NCBI GenBank assembly: GCA_000165345.1
Contig: CM000436.1
Coordinates: 416,001 to 480,000, forward strand
Direction of reading: 5' to 3'
Length of the DNA: 64,000 bases
Part shown: one piece after another, positions 46,348-58,239 of the stretch
Layout of the letters: each line of letters opens with the position of its first letter
Numbering within the stretch: the first letter of the stretch is position 1
Position numbers and translations under genes: made by a program
Notes under the pieces: model-generated
What the model was told of the DNA's origin: nothing
The model's input: the letters and a program-made list of their open reading frames with translations, nothing else
The model's database searches: none

Positions 46348-47787
46348 TTAACCCCATGTCTCCTTTAAAATAGTTGATAAATCCTCCTTTGTAACTGTTG
46401 CAGGATTTGTATGAATAGCTTCATCACTTAAAGCTCTAGAAATCATTCTATCCAAGTTCATTTGTAATGTATTGAAATTTAAATTATCAATTACACTCTT
46501 TTTACTAAGAATTGGTATTGTCCTCAATGCATTTTCTTCTGTAACATAGGCTCGAGTTTCTTTATCAGATATTGAAAATGATCCAGATACATGATTGATA
46601 AATTCTTGATTATCTATTTCTATACATTGCGAGAATACTGACAATTTAACACCTATTGGGTCAAACCATCCTTTAGACTTGAAATTAGATAGAGAAGAAT
46701 GAATTGAACTGAGAGAATCTGGAAGTAAGAGAGTCTTTTTTATTTCATCAATTCTGTTTAAAAGTGCCTGTATTTTATTAGAATTTGAATCTTCTGGGTT
46801 ACTTATTCCAAGTTCAACTGAAAGATTTGCAATCAAAGGCCCCACAGTCTGGCTTTTCTTTATATTAAAGTTGAGCACTTGAGTAATCACAATACTGTCA
46901 ATAAGTCCATGAGGAAGTGTAAATACTTCTGAAATACTTCTGGATAAGATTGTTCCAAGACCTACATCAGTTGCTGAAATTGCAACTCCAGATATTGAAG
47001 CAGCCTTATGGATTTCTTGCAATAAACTAATATCCTTCTCAATGACAGCTTTAGTCAAACTATTAAATAAAATTCTTAAAGACTGAATAGCCATACATGA
47101 TGAATAATGGTTTGAAGAATTACTAATGTAAGACTCTAATCCATGAAGAAGAGCTCTCATACCTGTAATAGAAGCCACAAACATTGGAATTGTTAATATG
47201 AAACTCGAGTCTATTACTGATATATCTGGTAAAAACGCCACACCTGAAACTATCATTTGTCTGCCATCATCATTCCTTAAAACCGCCGTAGATGTCACTT
47301 CTGACCCAGAACCACATGTTGTCGGAATGCATACCAACTTCTTTATTAAACTCCCTCTTCTATGTATCATTGCCTTTTTTGAACTCTTTTCCTTATCATT
47401 ATTGTTAGTTCCCATTGCAAGTGAACGCAAAGTCGTATTCGGATCCTCGTATAAAACTCTTAGTACTTTTGCTATATCCATACAATGTCCTCCACCCATC
47501 CCTATTATACAGTCAGGCTTATATGATTTCATCTGCAAAAGAATTGTGCTTAATGCATTCGCATCTGACTCACATAGCTCAGAAAACTCTATTTGAATTC
47601 CATTCTTCTTCACCATCGACTCAACTCTCATCGCCTGACATTTTACTGCTGAAGAAAATACCAATATGGCTCGCCCCACATTTGAATCCAACAAATCTGA
47701 GATTATATCTCTAAAGGAATCCATATTATAGTATATTATTGGTGTAAGAATTAACATTTTTTTTATCTTAACAACTATATTAATCAA
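46348..47787 (-). CDS. Iron-containing alcohol dehydrogenase (Fe-ADH family), monofunctional paralog of the AdhE C-terminal domain
   Basis: Fe-ADH motifs KPDCIIGMGGGHCMDIAKVLRVLYEDP and KLVCIPTTCGSGSEVTSTAVL. Collinear with the ADH half of the adjacent AdhE (KPDCLIGFGGGSPMDASKLVRLMYEHP and RFICIPTTSGTGAEMTPFAVI). Confidence 0.8.
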   Translation of the reverse strand: MINIVVKIKKMLILTPIIYYNMDSFRDIISDLLDSNVGRAILVFSSAVKCQAMRVESMVKKNGIQIEFSELCESDANALSTILLQMKSYKPDCIIGMGGGHCMDIAKVLRVLYEDPNTTLRSLAMGTNNNDKEKSSKKAMIHRRGSLIKKLVCIPTTCGSGSEVTSTAVLRNDDGRQMIVSGVAFLPDISVIDSSFILTIPMFVASITGMRALLHGLESYISNSSNHYSSCMAIQSLRILFNSLTKAVIEKDISLLQEIHKAASISGVAISATDVGLGTILSRSISEVFTLPHGLIDSIVITQVLNFNIKKSQTVGPLIANLSVELGISNPEDSNSNKIQALLNRIDEIKKTLLLPDSLSSIHSSLSNFKSKGWFDPIGVKLSVFSQCIEIDNQEFINHVSGSFSISDKETRAYVTEENALRTIPILSKKSVIDNLNFNTLQMNLDRMISRALSDEAIHTNPATVTKEDLSTILKETWG

Positions 47788-49116: not shown

Positions 49117-51714
49117 TTAATGTTCTGGATATCTGACAAATCCAGAATAAGCGTCAATATAGAGTTGTTTAATCTCATTTAAAAGAGGGAATCTTGGATT
49201 AGCTCCCACACATTGATCATCAAGAGCATGGATACTCATAGACTCAACTTTTGACATATAATGTTCTTCCTCTATTCCATGATCTTTAACACACATTGGA
49301 ACTTGTAATGTTTTCTTGAGATTTTGTATTGCTTCAACTAGAATTCTAATATTAATACTCTCTTGATCCAAATTACTATCAAAGCTCTGATTGGACTTGA
49401 AATGCAAGATATCAACAAGCTTTGCATATCTACTCTTTGCTACAGGATACTTGTACTGAGATAGAATGGACTGTTTTGTTGGTCTATTAGATGCATTGTA
49501 AGAAATAATATGTGGTAAAAGTATTGCATTTGCAATTCCATGTGGAATATGCATTTGAGCTCCCAGTTGGTGAGCTAGAGCATGGCAAATTCCAAGAAAA
49601 GCATTTGAGAATGCCATACCAGCAATAGATGAAGCATTGTGTACATATTCTCTTGCCTTGGCATCTGCATTGATAACAGAGTTTGGCAAATGATCGAATA
49701 TAAGTCTCATAGCTTGAATGCAAAGTCCATCAGTGTATTCAGAAGCATAGGTTGCAACAAAAGCTTCAAGGGCATGTGTTAGAGCATCTAAGCCAGTTGC
49801 AGCTGCAAGGAACCTTGGCATAGAAAGAACAAAGTTGGCATCAACAATGGCCATATCAGGAGTAAGCTTGTAAGAAGCAATAGGATATTTGATTCCAGTG
49901 CTGTTATCAGTAATTACAGCAAATGGAGTCATTTCTGCTCCAGTACCAGAAGTAGTAGGAATACAAATAAATCTTTGAATTTTTCCACCGCTGGGAGGTA
50001 GTTTGACAATTCTCTTTCTAATATCCATAAATCTAGTAACAACTTCATTCCATTTGACAGTTGGATGTTCATACATAAGCCTTACAAGCTTGGAAGCGTC
50101 CATAGGAGAGCCTCCTCCAAAACCAATAAGACAATCTGGTTTGCTTACATTTAATCTTTTAACAATTTCCTTGACAGTTTCAACATCAGGTTCAGGAGGG
50201 ACTTCTGCAAACATCTCAGAGGCTACTCCTACAGACTTGAGACCTTCAATAAGATTATCAACAAACCCAAGACTAACCATGACTCTATCAGTAATAATGT
50301 AGGCTTTCTTTAAATTGATTTCTTTGAGATCTTGTAAAGCTTCTTCAAGGCATCCTCTATTGAAATAAATAGAAGGTGGAACCTTAAACCAGGAGATGTG
50401 GTCCCTTCTTTGTACAACTTGCTTGTAATTAAGCAAATGTTTTACACCAATTCCCTCAGCTGTTGAAGTATGGCCCCAGGAACCACATCCCAAAGTCAAA
50501 GAAGGAGTTTGACGGAAGTTAAACATTTCACCCATTGCTCCTTGAGCAGCTGGCATGCAAACTAGAACTCTTCCAGTGGGAATGCTTCTCTGGAACTCAG
50601 TAATTCTGCGTTTTCCTTCATCAGAATTTGGGTCAGTATATATACAAGATGTGTGTCCCAAACCACCAAATTCAACTAAGGCTTTTGCCTTGGAAACACC
50701 ATCATTAAAGTCGCTAGCTCTGATGATTGACAATACAGGACACAACTTTTCGTGAGACAGTTTCTCCCCTCTTCCAATTTCGTTGATTTCAGCAAGAATC
50801 ATAACAGCATCTTTTGGGATATCAATGGATGCCATCTTTGCGATTTCAACTGCACTAATTCCAACAGATTTAGGATTCATATTTCCATTTTCGTCAATTA
50901 ATAAATTCCCAAGTCTCTGGAGCTCATCTTTTGAAGAAATGATATGTACTCCTCTATTTTTGAATCCAGAAATCAACTTATCATATACTGAATCTAGAAC
51001 CACCAAACATTGTTCGGATGCGCAAATTAAACTGTTATCAAATGTTTTGGATAAAATTACTGAGTTCACAACCATTTCCAAATCTGAGAGTTCATCAACT
51101 AATACTGGTGAATTTCCTGCTCCTCCTCCCAAGGCTGGTTTTCCACATGAATAAGCTGCCTTCACCAAAGCCACTGAACCTGTTGCTAGAATGGCACTGA
51201 CAGAGCTATGGTTCATTAAGGAATTACATAAGGAAATACTTGCAACATCGATCCAACCAATACAATCCTCTGGAGCTCCTGCTTCTATTGCTGCATCCCT
51301 GATAATTTTGGCTGCTCTTATGGAGCTTCTAGCAGTTCTTGGATGAGGAGAAAATACTATGCAGTTTCTTGTCTTAAGGGAGATGAGGGATTTGAAGATC
51401 GTTGTAGATGTTGGATTTGTACATGGAGAGATTCCTGCCAAAATTCCCAATGGTTCAGCAACAATATCAATTCCTCCAAATTCATCATGTTCAATTACTC
51501 CTACAGTCTTTGTATTTCTGTACTTATTATAAATATTCTCTGATGCAAAGTGATTCTTTATTATCTTATCCTCTAACAATCCCATTCCACCATCTTCTAT
51601 TGCTAATACTGCCAACTCATATCTTGCACAGTTTGCTGCCAAGGAAGCTCTTTGAAAAATATAATCAACTTGCTCTTGAGAAAGTTTTAAAAAAGCTTTC
51701 TGAGCTACTTCCAC
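49117..51714 (-). CDS. adhE: Bifunctional acetaldehyde-CoA / alcohol dehydrogenase AdhE
   Basis: N-terminal ALDH domain (MEVAQKAFLKLSQEQVDYIFQRASLAANCARYELAVLAIEDGGMG ... ) fused to a C-terminal Fe-ADH domain (GFGGGSPMDASK ... ICIPTTSGTGAEMTPFAV ... HALAHQLGAQMHIPHGIANAILLPHIISYN). 865 aa, the canonical AdhE length. Confidence 0.95.
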   Translation of the reverse strand: MEVAQKAFLKLSQEQVDYIFQRASLAANCARYELAVLAIEDGGMGLLEDKIIKNHFASENIYNKYRNTKTVGVIEHDEFGGIDIVAEPLGILAGISPCTNPTSTTIFKSLISLKTRNCIVFSPHPRTARSSIRAAKIIRDAAIEAGAPEDCIGWIDVASISLCNSLMNHSSVSAILATGSVALVKAAYSCGKPALGGGAGNSPVLVDELSDLEMVVNSVILSKTFDNSLICASEQCLVVLDSVYDKLISGFKNRGVHIISSKDELQRLGNLLIDENGNMNPKSVGISAVEIAKMASIDIPKDAVMILAEINEIGRGEKLSHEKLCPVLSIIRASDFNDGVSKAKALVEFGGLGHTSCIYTDPNSDEGKRRITEFQRSIPTGRVLVCMPAAQGAMGEMFNFRQTPSLTLGCGSWGHTSTAEGIGVKHLLNYKQVVQRRDHISWFKVPPSIYFNRGCLEEALQDLKEINLKKAYIITDRVMVSLGFVDNLIEGLKSVGVASEMFAEVPPEPDVETVKEIVKRLNVSKPDCLIGFGGGSPMDASKLVRLMYEHPTVKWNEVVTRFMDIRKRIVKLPPSGGKIQRFICIPTTSGTGAEMTPFAVITDNSTGIKYPIASYKLTPDMAIVDANFVLSMPRFLAAATGLDALTHALEAFVATYASEYTDGLCIQAMRLIFDHLPNSVINADAKAREYVHNASSIAGMAFSNAFLGICHALAHQLGAQMHIPHGIANAILLPHIISYNASNRPTKQSILSQYKYPVAKSRYAKLVDILHFKSNQSFDSNLDQESINIRILVEAIQNLKKTLQVPMCVKDHGIEEEHYMSKVESMSIHALDDQCVGANPRFPLLNEIKQLYIDAYSGFVRYPEH

Positions 51715-52620
51715 CTTTAATTAGAAGAAAAATATATAAATAATAATCAAATCCAAGTTAATTCATATTTTTGGAGCTAGGAACAATCTGTTCCTCAATT
51801 TTCTCTTACCTTTTTTAATAATTCATCCAAGGACTCAACAGAATCGACCAGCTTTCCAATGCTCTGTGATACCTCAGGAATGTAAGCACTCATATTTGAA
51901 AATCTGGAAAAATAATAAACAGTGTATTTATTTTCTTAATAATTATTTTCCTATAAATTATTCTCTAGCTCTGCTGATTAGTTTATTTACTCATTTTTTT
52001 TAATATCGCATGTAAACTCTACAAAAGTAGGCCGGTAAATACAAAAATTGCATGTAAACAATAAAAATGCATGCAATCCTCGAATTTCTGTCAAATTTTA
52101 AATTATTGAACTTATTTTCGATTCTTATGAATACTATTATTTTTAATGCTTTACTATTCGCCTTTTTCATTTATATACTAATTGATTCAAATACACAACA
52201 ACTTATTCCATTTCTTTAATTCTTCTGACATTGCTAGCTAAAAAAAATTTTGTAAATAACTAAATTTCAAAATAAATAAAATAGCATAATCCTGTAATTA
52301 CCTAGAATTAGTTTCATTAGAACAATACGTTGATGGAATCCTCTATTCAAATCCTTCTATTTACTTTCACATATTTTTTTTTTTACCTATTCGTCATTCA
52401 CAAAAATCCTATACCGGCATTAAATTTAGGCGCCAAAACTAATTATTTTCTCTTTTTCTATTCCATTTCAACATATAATAAGATTAACAAGTTAAAGCCA
52501 ATTTTATTTCTATAGAAATTTGGGGAGTTTTTTTTTGTAAAGTTTCTCCTTAAATTAATTGCTCCCCCTCAACTTTCTACTTTCAGTTTTATTTATACCC
52601 CACAACATGGAAAGGCAATT

Positions 52621-53556
52621 ATGAATAGTGAATGCAAGACTTTAGAAAAAGATATAGGTCTTGCTTATTGTAAAGTACTCTTGGTGGGTGTTGGAGGAAT
52701 TGGAACAGAAATCCTTAGATGTCTGATATTCTCCGGATTTAGACGAATTGATATCGTTGACTATGACTACGTTGAAGTCTCCAATATTTCCAGACAACTA
52801 TTTTTCAACCTTGGAGATGAAGGAAAGTCCAAGGTGCATGTTTTGGCGGCAAACGCAACAAACCACTTCAAGTCAGCAAAAGGATTAGAAATCAAGCCTT
52901 TTCATTCTGACATTTCCGACTTTTTCTCAAAGTTCAATGTGACCCCATCCGACTACAAAATCATTCTTTCTGGTTTGGATAATATTCATGCAAGAAGGAC
53001 ATTGAATGCTATAGTAATGACGCAATCTAGTCCTCAAGCTTATCCAATACTATTAGATAGTGGTACTGAAGGATTTAATGGCCATTCTAGAATCATTATT
53101 CCGGGAGAAACATCCTGCTATGAATGTACAATGGGACTCAACGTCCAAGATACTAACTTTCCACTCTGTGAAATCAAAGAATTCCCTAGAACACCTATTC
53201 ATTGTATAGCATATGCAAATTTTATATATGAGGAAGATGAACAAGACAATGAGGACTTTAAAAATCACAAAATTCTTAAGATTTATCAACTAGCACAAGA
53301 ACATGCAAAATCTTTTGGAATTCAGGGAGTCACTTTAGAATTAACAAAACAAATTATTGGAAATATCTTCCCAACACTTCTTTCTACAAATACAATTATT
53401 GCATCCTCTGTGGTTTCCCAGGCCATTAAGTATCTAAGAGGCTCTGGACAAGCCAAGAACCTTAAAAACTATTTTATGTATTATGGTCAAACAGGTATAT
53501 ATTCATCCTGCTTTGAAATTCACAAAGACGAAAACTGTATTTTTTGTAAGATATAA
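52621..53556 (+). CDS. UBA3: NEDD8-activating enzyme E1 catalytic subunit UBA3, lacking the C-terminal ubiquitin-fold domain
   Basis: CKVLLVGVGGIGTEILRCLIFSGFRRIDIVDYDYVEVSNISRQ ... DSGTEGFNGHSRIIIPGETSCYECTMGLNVQDTNFPLCEIKEFPRTPIHCIAYA ... FGIQGVTLELTKQIIGNIFPTLLSTNTIIASSV aligns with human UBA3 including the catalytic Cys (PMCTIAS vs PLCEIKE). ORF stops 2 residues after the ENCxxC block, where UBA3 normally continues for about 95 aa of UFD. Confidence 0.85.
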   Translation: MNSECKTLEKDIGLAYCKVLLVGVGGIGTEILRCLIFSGFRRIDIVDYDYVEVSNISRQLFFNLGDEGKSKVHVLAANATNHFKSAKGLEIKPFHSDISDFFSKFNVTPSDYKIILSGLDNIHARRTLNAIVMTQSSPQAYPILLDSGTEGFNGHSRIIIPGETSCYECTMGLNVQDTNFPLCEIKEFPRTPIHCIAYANFIYEEDEQDNEDFKNHKILKIYQLAQEHAKSFGIQGVTLELTKQIIGNIFPTLLSTNTIIASSVVSQAIKYLRGSGQAKNLKNYFMYYGQTGIYSSCFEIHKDENCIFCKI

Positions 53557-53718
53557 AATTATAGTTGGACTATCCGATCCATTCATATTTACTCATTTAT
53601 TATTCACTATTAACTTATTTATTTCTACCGGAAGTCCTTTTCTCTAAGACTCCCAATCTAGAATTAATCTCATCTTTCAAATAAAAATTAGATTACATTC
53701 TATCCGATTTATTGTCTA

Positions 53719-56700
53719 TTAATTGTTCTTTTTTGTTGTATTCACAGGCTCCCAAGATAAAAAGCTTTCAACATTAGCATCTCCACCTTTAGCTACAGAA
53801 GAGTTGAACCACGCTTCTCCAGCATTAAGTCCCCAAGTTGAACTTATATTTCCAATATACTGAGACCTCCCCATTTCTGTGTATAGTCCAGCAATACCTT
53901 TTGATCCTTCAAGCGCTTTTTGAGCTTTAGGAGGTATATATGGGGTTCTAACCTTCTCATCCAAGTAAATGAATCCAGAATACGATGAATTGATCAATTC
54001 GATCGCTAGATCTTTTGAAATACCAAGATTTGTAAGATTCCCTGAAATCCCATCCCATCTATTATTCATTGGTGGTATTGGAGCTCTTCCATCATTTCCA
54101 CTTGAATCTCCAAAATTTCCATTATCTATTTCTGTAGAGTTTATTGTTCCTATTAATGCATAAGGAGCTAATCCTTGGCATGAACATTCAATCACAAATT
54201 GCTTGCTTTCCTGTTTACTTGGAGAAATATTACTTGTACAAAGATCTTCTCTCCAAACTGAGTCACTTAACATTGAACAACCTATATTTGTCATATTTAC
54301 TGGAATCTCAAAAGAAAGAGGAAGTGAAAATGTTACTGTAGGAGTTCCATATGCATAATAATCAATTGAACAAAGATAAAGAGCTCCTCCTCCTATTGGA
54401 ATAGGTCTTGAGACTTTTCTAACAGCATTCTCTATTAACATATTCGAAATATATTTCCTTGGGTAAGTATAACTAGAAATTGTTGCTGATGTATTTGGAC
54501 AACTTCTTGAAGCAAATTCTAGCATTTCTGAATCGTATTCTTCCGGATATGCTTGGAAGTAAATAGATTCAACAGGGGAAAGTTTCTTTATCTCATTAAA
54601 TCTAAAGCCTGAAATTGCCATTCCGTTCAAACTTGTTGATCTTCTCGTAAATACTTCATCTAAAGTAATTACAGAAAGCGAAATACCACTTTCTTTTCCT
54701 TTCCAATCCAAAGAATCTTTATTATAAGTCCAAAATGAAAATCTATTACCCACAGATTCAAGCATATGCGAGATGGTTGACTCTAGATTACTATCTCCAA
54801 GTATTCTACTCCATCCATTGCTTGCAACTAATAGATCCAAAGTCTCTAGAACAAGATTTGAGACACTAGGACTACTGGTACATTCTGCATTCAAAGTAAT
54901 ATTCATCAATATTTCAAAAGGTCTTGTGACATCCAAATTAAGTTTAGGATTTTCGTAGGCAACTTTGTAAATCTTCTTAAGAATATACAGAGACATAAGC
55001 TTGAAAGAAGCAAAGTCATAGCCTTGAGGAATATTCTGGAGTTCAAATGCTGTGGAATAGATCGACTCAAAATAGTTTTTCCATATTAACAAGTTATCTT
55101 TGTTTTCCTCAAAAAGAGCACTCACCAATTGAATTGTTTCTATTGGTGTTGTATAAGCCAATGGATGTGTAACCACAGCTATTGCATCTTCAATCTCTGA
55201 TTGAGAATCTTTAGTCTTCATCAAAACTTTGGAAAATGGACAAGGGAAAGAATTCAACAGACTCAAGTCATTGGAACACCAATGAGAGTAGAAAGAGTCT
55301 TTGAATGGAGGTTGGCAAGGAATATAACAACCAGAAAATGTTACTGTTTGGGCTCTAATGTATACAAACCATTCTTTGCTGGTAGCTGGGAGCCTTAAAG
55401 AGGGTGGAAGCTGAGTCAAAGAATCTCCAAGGAAAATGACTGTGGAATTCTGTCCAATAATTTGCGATGATGATGCGATAATTCCAAAACTTGCAAAACC
55501 TTCATCTTGCTCTGTGTTTGAAAATGCAAGATTGCTAAGAGTGAGGAAAATTGAGTCCCCAATAGAAGCTCCTTTTTCCTCTGGTTGATATAGAGAAAGC
55601 TTTCCAACAGTTGGAGGAAAGTCAACAGCTCCAAATTCTATAGATACAAATTCATTTGTATTGGGTTGTGGATTACTTTGTATTAAGGTTTCATACGAAA
55701 TAAAGGTTGTTCTAGGAGAACTGGATTCTGAAATGATTAATTCATGAATACAATTTGAGAATTTTGAGTTTTGTAGAACTGGATACTTAGTAGTTATGAT
55801 CATAGATCCTCCTAGATTTGAAAAATCAGCAATTGAAATCTTGGAAACACTTGGAGTCCCTGAAACTCTTCTTATTGATTCACAATAAAGATATGCTGAG
55901 ACATAGAATTCTTTGTTAATACTAATTCCAGAAGTTTTCCCTAGAACTACTTTGTGTCTGATCTGTAGAACTTTGTTAAAAGGGATTAAAAATGAATACT
56001 TTGTATTATGAAGATGATCCCAAGCCTTTACTGTTGGGTAAATAATGAAGATCTGTTGAACAGTTGTGGGAATCATTGGTATCATTGGAATTTTGGAACA
56101 ATATTCTGGTGATAGAAAGCCTGAAATTGGAGGAGAAAAGAGCTTAACTGAAATACCCTTTGAAGGACTTGTATAAGAAATAGTATCAGTGAAAATTGTT
56201 ACTGTTATAGCAAGATAGTCAGTAGTCTTAAAAGATGAAGCTTTCAGAGTGGTTACATGTTCTTCTGGAGCAGTATTCACCATTCCAATAAACTGATTCT
56301 GGCTATCTGGAGTGTTTAAGCATGTAACAAATTCATTGTTTAGCTTACATGATGTAATCTCGTCTCTAGGTACTTCAATCATATCTTGCCAAGTATTTGT
56401 GGATGTAGTCTTTTTGGTTTTACACTGCCAAGCTGTTTTGAGTGAGTACATATCTCTTTTCATAGGTACGAATCTAGCGGCTCTACAAGTCATTCCTGAT
56501 CCAGGAGTTGCATAGTTTCCAAAGTTTCTGTTAATATACCTTTCGCTAAACTGATAGAATTCACTTCCAAGAGTAATTGAAGTATCATGATTCACAAAAG
56601 ATGGTAAATTATAGAAGATAAAAGGTTGGTTTGAAGCAGTTGCAATCAAAAGAGAGTGAAGAAGACCGTTTCCAGGGTATATCTTCTTAAATTTTCGTGT

Positions 56701-58239
56701 CTCATCATTTATATCTGATCTAAAGGTTCCTTTGTGAGTATAGCTGACATATTGGATTAGGGATGACAATACAAAAAAGTAACTTATAGGAGATGGAGCT
56801 GAAAGATATTTGATCGGAGGGAGGTAGAACGGGGATTTAAATTGGGTATTTGAATTTCTGAGATGGGTTCCACATAACCCCACACCTGCATGCACACCGG
56901 TATAGGAAGATTTGGGAGAATATGGGAAGGTACCATTATAATAGCATCCTCCAAGAAAATTATTTGAAAATGTGAGATATGTTGAAATAGTGTTTTGGAG
57001 TTGTCCAGGGTAGTTTTTTCCATTTAAGAATGGTCTTTTAGAGAAGTACATGCTAGAGAGTACAGTGTTTCTGGATATAGTAGAGTCATTTTTTGAGTAT
57101 TTTGAAATAAACCTTTTTGGGGGTAAATCTTTAAGGTAATTGATATTGAATGGATTGGAAGAATTATTAGCATAATTCCAAAAAGGGTCCATAGGGTAAT
57201 AGAATAAATAGTTATTTACACAGTTTGTACTACTGTTGGATGGAAGATTAGATGGCATAACCACTCTAATAGGTGAGACACCTAAGGGAATGTTTGTCCA
57301 ACCAAAAGGTACTGCAGAATTATATTCGTTGGTAGTAACATTATTTTGGATTGCAATGAAAGCTCCTTGAGCAGAGTTTATAATAGGGGGTTGGAAACCT
57401 GCAAACCTTTCTTTAGGCTTCCAAATCCCAGATGTTAGGTCAGAATCATATCTTCCATATGAAAAGGTCATGTTAAAGAGATCAACATATGAGTGATCTG
57501 GAGGATCAGATTCTTGGATTGAGCTTCCAGGAAGGACCTCTGGAGGAAGGTCTATTTTATATTTAAATGGTAGAACAACCATATCTGAGAAAGAATTAGC
57601 CAAATTTAGGACACTTGCAACATTAACCCAATTTTCACTATAATAATGTTGCTGGAGCCAGGTAAGGACTGGATCAGGAGAAGGAGTAGTTGAGACACCT
57701 TCTTCCACAATACTCGCAAGTGCATCTCCAATTATAGTTCCTGGTATGAGGAAAGTGAAGTTAGTAGCTGAGGTAGATTGGATCATGGTTGGCTCAAAAT
57801 TATTCAAGTAATCTACAACCATGTTGCAGGCAACATAGTAGCTTGAGGTTTGGTTAACAGAGATGGATCCAAAAGCTGTAGAGATCCAGATTGGGTCAGT
57901 TAAGCCTGCATGATTACATGAGAATGAGATTGGATTACTTTCAAAAACATAGTTAATATTCTTGAGGCTGATTACAATTGGGTACATATAAGAGCAAGGA
58001 GTTAAAATAGCTGGGAATCCGATAGTAGACCATAAAGAAAGGTCGTATCTAGGCTGGTTTGCTAAATCATCAATTTTGATATCCATTCCCCATGCACCTT
58101 GGGCTATTGTACTATTTGGAAACATGGGATTGACAGTGTAGCTTTCTGGCATAAGCTGGGAGAGGACTAGGCTATTTTTTAGCCAGGAAATTTGAATAAG
58201 AAAAATAAGGAGTAGGCATGGGATTCTCCTTAATAGCAT
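53719..58239 (-). CDS. Large secreted protein (1506 aa) with cleavable signal peptide, Cys-containing and rich in N-glycosylation sequons. Lineage-specific extracellular protein
   Basis: N-terminus MLLRRIPCLLLIFLIQISWLKNSLVLSQ is a textbook signal peptide. No internal TM helices. Dozens of NxS/T sequons. No recognised domain. Confidence 0.6.
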   Translation of the reverse strand: MLLRRIPCLLLIFLIQISWLKNSLVLSQLMPESYTVNPMFPNSTIAQGAWGMDIKIDDLANQPRYDLSLWSTIGFPAILTPCSYMYPIVISLKNINYVFESNPISFSCNHAGLTDPIWISTAFGSISVNQTSSYYVACNMVVDYLNNFEPTMIQSTSATNFTFLIPGTIIGDALASIVEEGVSTTPSPDPVLTWLQQHYYSENWVNVASVLNLANSFSDMVVLPFKYKIDLPPEVLPGSSIQESDPPDHSYVDLFNMTFSYGRYDSDLTSGIWKPKERFAGFQPPIINSAQGAFIAIQNNVTTNEYNSAVPFGWTNIPLGVSPIRVVMPSNLPSNSSTNCVNNYLFYYPMDPFWNYANNSSNPFNINYLKDLPPKRFISKYSKNDSTISRNTVLSSMYFSKRPFLNGKNYPGQLQNTISTYLTFSNNFLGGCYYNGTFPYSPKSSYTGVHAGVGLCGTHLRNSNTQFKSPFYLPPIKYLSAPSPISYFFVLSSLIQYVSYTHKGTFRSDINDETRKFKKIYPGNGLLHSLLIATASNQPFIFYNLPSFVNHDTSITLGSEFYQFSERYINRNFGNYATPGSGMTCRAARFVPMKRDMYSLKTAWQCKTKKTTSTNTWQDMIEVPRDEITSCKLNNEFVTCLNTPDSQNQFIGMVNTAPEEHVTTLKASSFKTTDYLAITVTIFTDTISYTSPSKGISVKLFSPPISGFLSPEYCSKIPMIPMIPTTVQQIFIIYPTVKAWDHLHNTKYSFLIPFNKVLQIRHKVVLGKTSGISINKEFYVSAYLYCESIRRVSGTPSVSKISIADFSNLGGSMIITTKYPVLQNSKFSNCIHELIISESSSPRTTFISYETLIQSNPQPNTNEFVSIEFGAVDFPPTVGKLSLYQPEEKGASIGDSIFLTLSNLAFSNTEQDEGFASFGIIASSSQIIGQNSTVIFLGDSLTQLPPSLRLPATSKEWFVYIRAQTVTFSGCYIPCQPPFKDSFYSHWCSNDLSLLNSFPCPFSKVLMKTKDSQSEIEDAIAVVTHPLAYTTPIETIQLVSALFEENKDNLLIWKNYFESIYSTAFELQNIPQGYDFASFKLMSLYILKKIYKVAYENPKLNLDVTRPFEILMNITLNAECTSSPSVSNLVLETLDLLVASNGWSRILGDSNLESTISHMLESVGNRFSFWTYNKDSLDWKGKESGISLSVITLDEVFTRRSTSLNGMAISGFRFNEIKKLSPVESIYFQAYPEEYDSEMLEFASRSCPNTSATISSYTYPRKYISNMLIENAVRKVSRPIPIGGGALYLCSIDYYAYGTPTVTFSLPLSFEIPVNMTNIGCSMLSDSVWREDLCTSNISPSKQESKQFVIECSCQGLAPYALIGTINSTEIDNGNFGDSSGNDGRAPIPPMNNRWDGISGNLTNLGISKDLAIELINSSYSGFIYLDEKVRTPYIPPKAQKALEGSKGIAGLYTEMGRSQYIGNISSTWGLNAGEAWFNSSVAKGGDANVESFLSWEPVNTTKKNN

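Follow-up and report, generated by a model that had tools for sequence, protein, structure and literature searches.

A complete open reading frame (ORF) of Cryptosporidium parvum encodes UBA3, the catalytic subunit of the NEDD8-activating enzyme (E1), in a form that ends immediately after its second zinc-binding CxxC motif and lacks the ubiquitin-fold domain (UFD) at its C-terminus. The ORF is located in a stretch of 64,000 nucleotides (positions 416,001 to 480,000 of the forward strand of contig CM000436.1, GenBank assembly GCA_000165345.1), which is referred to here as the window and to which all coordinates apply. Based on sequence comparison and analogy with the budding-yeast enzyme, the protein is probably a functional NEDD8 E1 catalytic subunit with a minimal, 'yeast-type' architecture, from which the UFD would have been lost reductively and which would charge the NEDD8-conjugating enzyme (E2) Ubc12 in a UFD-independent manner. 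No paper noting the missing UFD of Cryptosporidium UBA3 was found in the searchable literature.

Identification of the UBA3 ORF

52621..53556, + strand: complete UBA3 coding sequence (NEDD8 E1 catalytic subunit), from the ORF list, an exact protein match, phmmer against PDB and Pfam

The ORF encodes 311 amino acids followed by a stop codon, with an ATG start and a TAA stop, and is matched exactly by the C. parvum protein QOY39927.1 and related accessions. GenBank already names this protein 'Uba3p like', and the supplement of Ponts 2008 includes cgd8_1730 as one of the C. parvum E1 enzymes. Using phmmer against all PDB chains, the human UBA3 chains appeared at the top of the list (E 4.6e-54, 187 bits), with an alignment of residues 14-309 of the query to residues 38-338 of the 434-residue human chain. 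Lower scores were obtained with the other E1 enzymes, including SAE2 of the SUMO E1 (113 bits), UBA1 (90 bits) and UBA5 (48 bits). The Pfam scan of the C. parvum protein returned the ThiF domain alone (PF00899; E 3.3e-43), with no E2_bind domain (PF08825) detected. Furthermore, an AlphaFold2 model of moderate confidence (pLDDT 71.7), built on a ten-sequence alignment, found its best Foldseek matches in PDB among the UBA3 chains of 1TT5, 3GZN, 2NVU and 1YOV (E ~1e-23 to 1e-21), with SAE2 ranking below these. By sequence and modelled fold, the product of the ORF is thus assigned as a UBA3 orthologue, nearer to UBA3 than to UBA2, UBA1 or UBA5. The initial annotation, which was made from the nucleotide sequence without database searches, had recognised a UBA3 with adenylation domain, zinc/Cys region and catalytic Cys, and the 187-bit match and the conserved residues described below agree with this.

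An older GenBank model of the protein (EAK89686.1/XP_627079.1; 346 aa, labelled 'partial') is 35 residues longer at the N-terminus than the current 311-aa models. This excess corresponds to the distance to the upstream in-frame stop (52516-52620), and as no Met is encoded within this stretch, position 52621 represents the first possible ATG. A five-codon, out-of-frame upstream ORF with its ATG at 52608 overlaps the UBA3 start. Ahead of the first strand, the C. parvum protein has a segment of 16 residues, the median among UFD-bearing UBA3 proteins being 37. Within Cryptosporidium this segment ranges from 0 to 41 residues, the zero coming from C. felis, whose 281-aa model starts past the GxGxxG motif and may be incomplete at its N-terminus. 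The initial annotation had described a very short N-terminal 'E2-docking' extension; the segment is indeed short, but the label is misplaced, as the docking peptide belongs to Ubc12 (PDB 1TT5 title, PMC12355090).

Absence of the UFD

53536..53547, + strand: second zinc CxxC (C306-I-F-C309), with no further structural element ahead of the stop, invariant in the Cryptosporidium alignment
53554..53556, + strand: TAA stop codon two residues after the CxxC, its position kept across the genus (C. ubiquitum ...CIFCKI-stop, C. muris ...CCICYSD-stop)
53557..53718, no strand: intergenic spacer of 162 nt with 27 % GC between convergent genes, with stops in all three forward frames and no UFD coding capacity
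53719..58239, - strand: convergent neighbour bounding the locus, a protein of 1506 aa that is specific to Cryptosporidium and has no Pfam domain (ORF list, Pfam)

The loop containing the second CxxC leads into the UFD in canonical E1 enzymes (PMC12355090). The C. parvum protein terminates as ...DENCIFCKI, two residues past the second CxxC (C306/C309), and its alignment with human UBA3 ends at the ENCxxC block, precisely as had been noted in the initial annotation. The same annotation had remarked that a UFD of about 95 aa follows this block elsewhere but is absent here, and that the 162 nt before the gene on the opposite strand leave no room for a UFD exon. Both points were borne out: typical UBA3 proteins continue for a median of 97 residues, neither PF08825 nor a UFD profile matched the C. 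parvum protein, and the spacer carries stops in each forward frame.

The stop codon is found one to three residues past the second CxxC in all eleven Cryptosporidium orthologues, which derive from independent assemblies (C. parvum, C. hominis, C. meleagridis, C. tyzzeri, chipmunk genotype I, C. ubiquitum, C. canis, C. felis, C. xiaoi, C. ryanae and C. muris, the last being the deep-branching member of the set). The gene order, with AdhE (-), UBA3 (+) and the large orphan gene (-), is shared by the assemblies of C. muris and C. ubiquitum, where stop-filled spacers of 393 and 167 nt, respectively, follow the UBA3 gene. A profile hidden Markov model (HMM) was constructed from 77 UFD tails of UBA3 homologues and recovers 82 full-length proteins in a test set. 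With this profile, 1643 fragments from the six frames of the window and of the two sister loci, those of C. muris and C. ubiquitum (26 kb), yielded nothing (best E 0.58), nor was there a match in any of the short UBA3 proteins, and a tblastn search with one UFD gave no match in the 162-nt spacer region.

A truncated appearance could also result if a frameshift or mis-assembly had interrupted the gene, if a 3' exon had been overlooked or if the gene were decaying into a pseudogene, and the older, 'partial' 346-aa model does differ from the current one at its N-terminus. Translation of the spacer frames and the read-through frame, together with tblastn and the UFD HMM, was used to look for a frameshift or hidden exon and yielded only noise. 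The stop is placed identically in eleven species with independent assemblies, no frame of the spacer is free of stops, the adjacent gene is syntenic and in convergent orientation, and Gregarina shows the same architecture. Furthermore, the gene is under purifying selection, with a dN/dS of 0.16 (dS 0.71) between C. parvum and C. ubiquitum and of about 0.3 in comparison with C. muris, where dS is saturated (Nei-Gojobori), and all of the catalytic residues are intact. An artefact or decaying gene is thus so improbable as to be effectively refuted. The initial annotation had itself raised the prospects of a sequencing frameshift and of a UFD encoded downstream in sister species; no frameshift was observed and no UFD was restored in the spacer or read-through frames, while the eleven orthologues share the same stop and no UFD was detected at the loci of C. 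muris and C. ubiquitum. Judged from these sequences, the missing UFD is a real and ancient trait of the genus Cryptosporidium.

Catalytic, zinc-binding and selectivity residues

52687..52704, + strand: GxGxxG nucleotide-binding motif (G23-V-G-G-I-G28) of the adenylation domain, from the sequence
53089..53091, + strand: Arg157, equivalent to human UBA3 Arg190 (GHSRIIIPG versus GNARVILPG), from alignment with human UBA3
53116..53127, + strand: first zinc CxxC (C166-Y-E-C169) in the crossover loop, invariant in the Cryptosporidium alignment and present in 113/116 UBA3-like representatives
53167..53172, + strand: catalytic Cys183 followed by Glu184 (PLCEIKEFP; canonical PxCTxxxxP), aligned to human FPMCTIASMPR

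Conservation of the glycines of the nucleotide-binding motif (G23/G25/G28) extends across Cryptosporidium and to at least 100 of the 116 UBA3-like representatives. The ATP/Mg-binding Asp, Asn, Arg and Lys residues (D47, N55, R58, K71 and D120) are conserved as well, being invariant among the eleven Cryptosporidium sequences, and the catalytic Cys183 is invariant. In human UBA3, Arg190 is the gate residue that excludes Arg72 of ubiquitin. The human residue aligned with Arg157 was placed at position 190, in the numbering of PDB 3DBL, 3DBR and 3DBH, by counting back from the catalytic Cys216 and the zinc ligands Cys199 and Cys202. This Arg is invariant among the Cryptosporidium sequences (11/11) and occurs in 85/116 UBA3-like representatives, while UBA2-like proteins vary at the position. 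Against the C. parvum query, PDB chains carrying R190Q or R190A score 1.8 and 2.8 bits, respectively, below the wild type. With the ATP/Mg, zinc-site, catalytic-Cys and ubiquitin-excluding residues all present, the enzyme appears intact as far as its sequence can tell.

One departure was observed at the active site. The residue following the catalytic Cys (codon 53170-53172) is Glu in 10/11 Cryptosporidium sequences and Thr in C. muris. Among the other representatives, the 116 UBA3-like ones have Thr (110), Ser (5) or a gap (1) at this position, and every one of the 33 UBA2-like ones has Thr or Ser. Since C. muris has the truncation without the Glu, this conserved substitution arose after the truncation.

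These features bear on the possibility that the protein is derived from UBA3 but has become non-canonical, activating another ubiquitin-like protein (Ubl), acting as a homodimer without ULA1, or transferring its Ubl without a dedicated E2. Such a shift could account for why the N-terminal segment and the UFD have both been lost, for the unique Cys-Glu in place of Cys-Thr and for the failure to identify ULA1 in Ponts 2008, and the recovery of a Leishmania UBA3 null mutant, where UBC12 appears essential, hints that the roles of E1 and E2 can be uncoupled in protists. Nevertheless, the Arg gate specific to the NEDD8 E1 is invariant, and both C. parvum and C. hominis are reported to have NEDD8, UBC12, a cullin and RBX1 (PMC2408969, PMC7029713). 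The truncation and the Cys-Glu can be separated, as C. muris is truncated in the same way and keeps the canonical Cys-Thr. A non-canonical enzyme is thus considered quite improbable.

Distribution of UFD-less UBA3 proteins

A HMMER scan of 1.84 billion representative proteins gave 170 matches below 1e-30. The best 150 of these were aligned together with the earlier homologue matches, and 128 non-Cryptosporidium sequences in this alignment carry all five key Cys residues. On the basis of the tail following the second CxxC these could be divided as follows.

Tail of 80-135 residues: 76/128 sequences (median 97), the UFD-bearing form
Tail of more than 135 residues: 29/128 sequences, UBA2-like
Tail of 14-79 residues: 10/128 sequences, at least some of which are clearly truncated gene models (P0036, P0078)
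Tail of 1-13 residues: 13/128 sequences, UFD-less

The named proteins with short tails are those of Eremothecium cymbalariae (317 aa), Wickerhamomyces mucosus (263 aa) and Gregarina niphandrodes (329 aa; ...NPNCTICQ), which all end one to three residues past the CxxC. The N-terminal segment is also reduced in this class, with 0-9 residues in 12/13 short representatives as opposed to the median of 37 in canonical UBA3. With its 16-residue N-terminal segment and 2-aa tail, the C. parvum protein fits the pattern of the short class. The closest UFD-bearing relatives are P0011 and P0035.

Full-text searches found no statement in the literature that yeast Uba3 lacks a UFD, and this was therefore shown directly from the sequences and their Pfam annotation. 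The Uba3 of Saccharomyces cerevisiae (P0191), to which the query sequence was a 100 % match, comprises 299 aa and contains no Pfam domain other than PF00899. This is equally true of about 30 named species of Saccharomycetaceae and of Komagataella, the genera concerned being Saccharomyces, Zygotorulaspora, Naumovozyma, Zygosaccharomyces, Torulaspora, Kazachstania, Vanderwaltozyma, Tetrapisispora, Nakaseomyces, Lachancea, Kluyveromyces, Eremothecium and Komagataella. By contrast, both PF00899 and PF08825 are found in the UBA3 proteins of insects, vertebrates and Mucoromycota. Among the short representatives, a separate clade of eight UFD-less UBA3 proteins of about 300 aa, with 38-49 % mutual identity, was also distinguished (P0085, P0094, P0101, P0104, P0135, P0156, P0162 and P0175, from Logan, JGI, ENA and NCBI assemblies). 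A 331-aa Candida albicans 'ubiquitin-activating enzyme E1 C' (P0408/P0358 pair) contains ThiF only, while the uba3 of Candida margitis (428 aa) includes E2_bind; it seems that UFD presence varies among yeasts outside the Saccharomycetaceae, or that some gene models are truncated. Taken on its domain content, the C. parvum UBA3 represents an architecture already known from the budding-yeast enzyme, rather than a new class of mechanism, and its GenBank name 'Uba3p like' is in keeping with this.

Recruitment of Ubc12 without a UFD

In the human E1, the UFD binds the core of Ubc12, while the N-terminal extension of Ubc12 docks in a groove of the UBA3 adenylation domain, and in the doubly loaded enzyme a cryptic surface is formed by the adenylation domain and the thioester-linked NEDD8 (PMC12355090, PMC2920667). 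UFD-independent contacts between UBE2M and the E1 have been described (PMC12355090). In yeast, Ula1-Uba3 serves as the E1 of the Rub1 pathway, in which Cdc53 is modified in a Ubc12-dependent manner (PMC10216172, PMC7677368). The yeast Ubc12 (PDB 3o2u, 190 aa) aligns with its human counterpart from residue 2, and its N-terminal extension has thus been kept. For the Ubc12 of Cryptosporidium, neither a PDB entry nor a paper giving the sequence was found.

We propose that the Cryptosporidium UBA3 would pair with a ULA1-like ThiF partner, adenylate NEDD8 and form a Cys183~NEDD8 thioester, with the NEDD8 then being passed to Ubc12 solely through UFD-independent contacts of the type described for the human enzyme. 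The first of these contacts would be made by the N-terminal peptide of Ubc12 in the groove of the adenylation domain, and the second by the E2 core with the thioester-bound NEDD8 and the exposed surface of the adenylation domain. The UFD-less Ula1-Uba3 of S. cerevisiae would have to work in the same way, and, on the strength of this analogy, yeast-like E2 recruitment without a UFD appears to be the likeliest and most economical mechanism for the Cryptosporidium enzyme. The initial annotation had proposed an unusual hand-over of NEDD8 or a divergent pathway; this inference is weakened by the UFD-less Uba3 of the Rub1 pathway of S. cerevisiae, by the other yeasts and by Gregarina. Loss of the UFD would have occurred by reductive evolution, possibly once in a common ancestor of Cryptosporidium and the gregarines. 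Gregarines are close relatives of Cryptosporidium, and a single loss in their ancestor is plausible, although the C. parvum and Gregarina proteins share 30 % identity and long-branch effects would dominate a tree.

Several points weigh against this interpretation of a functional, yeast-type enzyme. The APPBP1/ULA1 partner could not be assigned in Ponts 2008 (PMC2408969). Neddylation is dispensable in S. cerevisiae (PMC7677368), and the yeast precedent may reflect a relaxed pathway rather than an equally efficient one. Likewise, Glu184 departs from a near-universal Thr/Ser, and the catalytic behaviour of the enzyme may differ as a result.

The UFD may alternatively be supplied in trans, with a stand-alone ubiquitin-fold protein or an extension of a ULA1-like partner recruiting Ubc12 in a split E1. 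Seven other ThiF-type E1-like genes are present in C. parvum (Ponts 2008 supplement), namely cgd2_1120, cgd2_1460, cgd4_40, cgd4_1960, cgd4_2270, cgd4_2300 and cgd8_160. ULA1 is unassigned in Ponts 2008, and a protein with multiple Ubl (UBL) domains is encoded 7.6 kb from UBA3. This protein (61182 onward) was considered as a candidate for a UFD in trans and rejected, since it begins with a signal-peptide-like sequence and its match to the UFD profile is non-significant (E only 0.58). Moreover, nothing UFD-like was detected in the 64-kb window or in the loci of the sister species (26 kb), the UFD-less yeast enzyme is not known to have such a protein, and a simpler explanation with a precedent exists. 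A split E1 is therefore unlikely. Taken more broadly, the hand-over of NEDD8 in Cryptosporidium, and perhaps in gregarines, might follow neither the UFD-based route nor the peptide docking of yeast, and could depend on a ubiquitin-fold adaptor in trans, on recruitment by the partner subunit or on the altered Cys-Glu site. This would be a doubtful proposition at present; if true, the parasite NEDD8-activating enzyme (NAE) would be mechanistically distinct and selectively druggable.

Genes neighbouring UBA3

49117-51714, - strand: AdhE, a bifunctional aldehyde/alcohol dehydrogenase and the upstream neighbour of UBA3 (ORF list, synteny)

The window is AT-rich, with about 24-38 % GC in 2-kb windows. 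The AdhE protein comprises 865 aa as listed from a GTG start; it comprises 888-894 aa in the sister species, and the true start thus probably lies further upstream. A stand-alone Fe-ADH of 478 aa (46348-47787, - strand) is encoded near AdhE, both being iron-type alcohol dehydrogenases, and the Fe-ADH/AdhE pair also flanks UBA3 in C. ubiquitum.

The convergent neighbour at 53719-58239 (- strand) has a hydrophobic N-terminus and syntenic counterparts of 1506 aa in C. ubiquitum and 1511 aa in C. muris. Its product is a genus-specific orphan that is probably secreted or membrane-bound. At the end of the window, an ORF of at least 939 aa (61182-64000, + strand), which runs past the window end, has a signal-peptide-like start MRWLHLIVIFIQLSWVFG and includes several ubiquitin-like domains (Pfam Rad60-SLD, E 9.5e-12; ubiquitin, E 4e-11). 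It is also the source of the top, non-significant match to the UFD profile (E 0.58). This ORF would encode a secreted multi-UBL protein, 7.6 kb from UBA3.

Significance of UFD loss

The UFD appears to be dispensable in canonical NEDD8 E1 enzymes in at least three settings, namely the budding yeasts, the lineage of Cryptosporidium and the gregarines, and the eight-member environmental clade. The losses in the budding yeasts and in the Cryptosporidium/gregarine lineage are certainly independent of each other. Given that the UFD is dispensable in several settings, the UFD-independent contacts between E1 and E2 would be enough for a working pathway. The interface between NAE and Ubc12 and the Cys-Glu motif are points at which the parasite enzyme differs from the human one, and these differences could matter if neddylation were pursued as a drug target. 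The findings are thus of modest interest for the evolution of E1-E2 recognition and for parasite-selective targeting of neddylation.

Comparison with known systems

The nearest parallel in architecture is the Uba3p of S. cerevisiae (YPR066W, Q99344), which, like the C. parvum protein, combines a single ThiF domain with an inserted catalytic-Cys domain and two CxxC motifs. The Uba3 proteins of the Saccharomycetaceae, Wickerhamomyces and Komagataella are similarly of ~300 aa, end a few residues past the second CxxC, lack PF08825 and have almost no N-terminal extension. They differ in sequence (~34 % identity between the C. parvum and Eremothecium proteins), in belonging to a distant lineage with an independent loss, and in their active site, which retains Cys-Thr/Ser in place of the Cys-Glu of C. 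parvum.

Human UBA3 in the APPBP1-UBA3 complex (1R4M, 1TT5, 2NVU, 3GZN) represents the best match in both sequence and fold, and has the ATP motif, zinc site, catalytic Cys and Arg190 gate in common with the C. parvum protein. Its C-terminal UFD of ~95 aa and its longer N-terminal segment are both missing in C. parvum; in the human enzyme, the UFD binds the Ubc12 core and rotates on double loading (PMC12355090, PMC2920667). Closer in lineage, the UBA3 of Gregarina niphandrodes (XP_011132211.1, P0145; 329 aa) resembles the C. parvum type in ending one residue past the second CxxC and in having all five key Cys residues. It is distinguished by sharing only 30 % identity with its C. parvum counterpart, by an N-terminal extension of 35 residues and by a Cys-Ser at the active site (PLCSIAQKP). 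UBA5, ATG7 and UBA4/MOCS3 are likewise E1 enzymes that recruit their E2 without a ubiquitin-fold domain (PMC12355090). These are, however, homodimers without a separate catalytic-Cys domain, whereas the C. parvum protein, which scores 48 bits against UBA5 and 187 bits against UBA3, is of the canonical UBA3 type.

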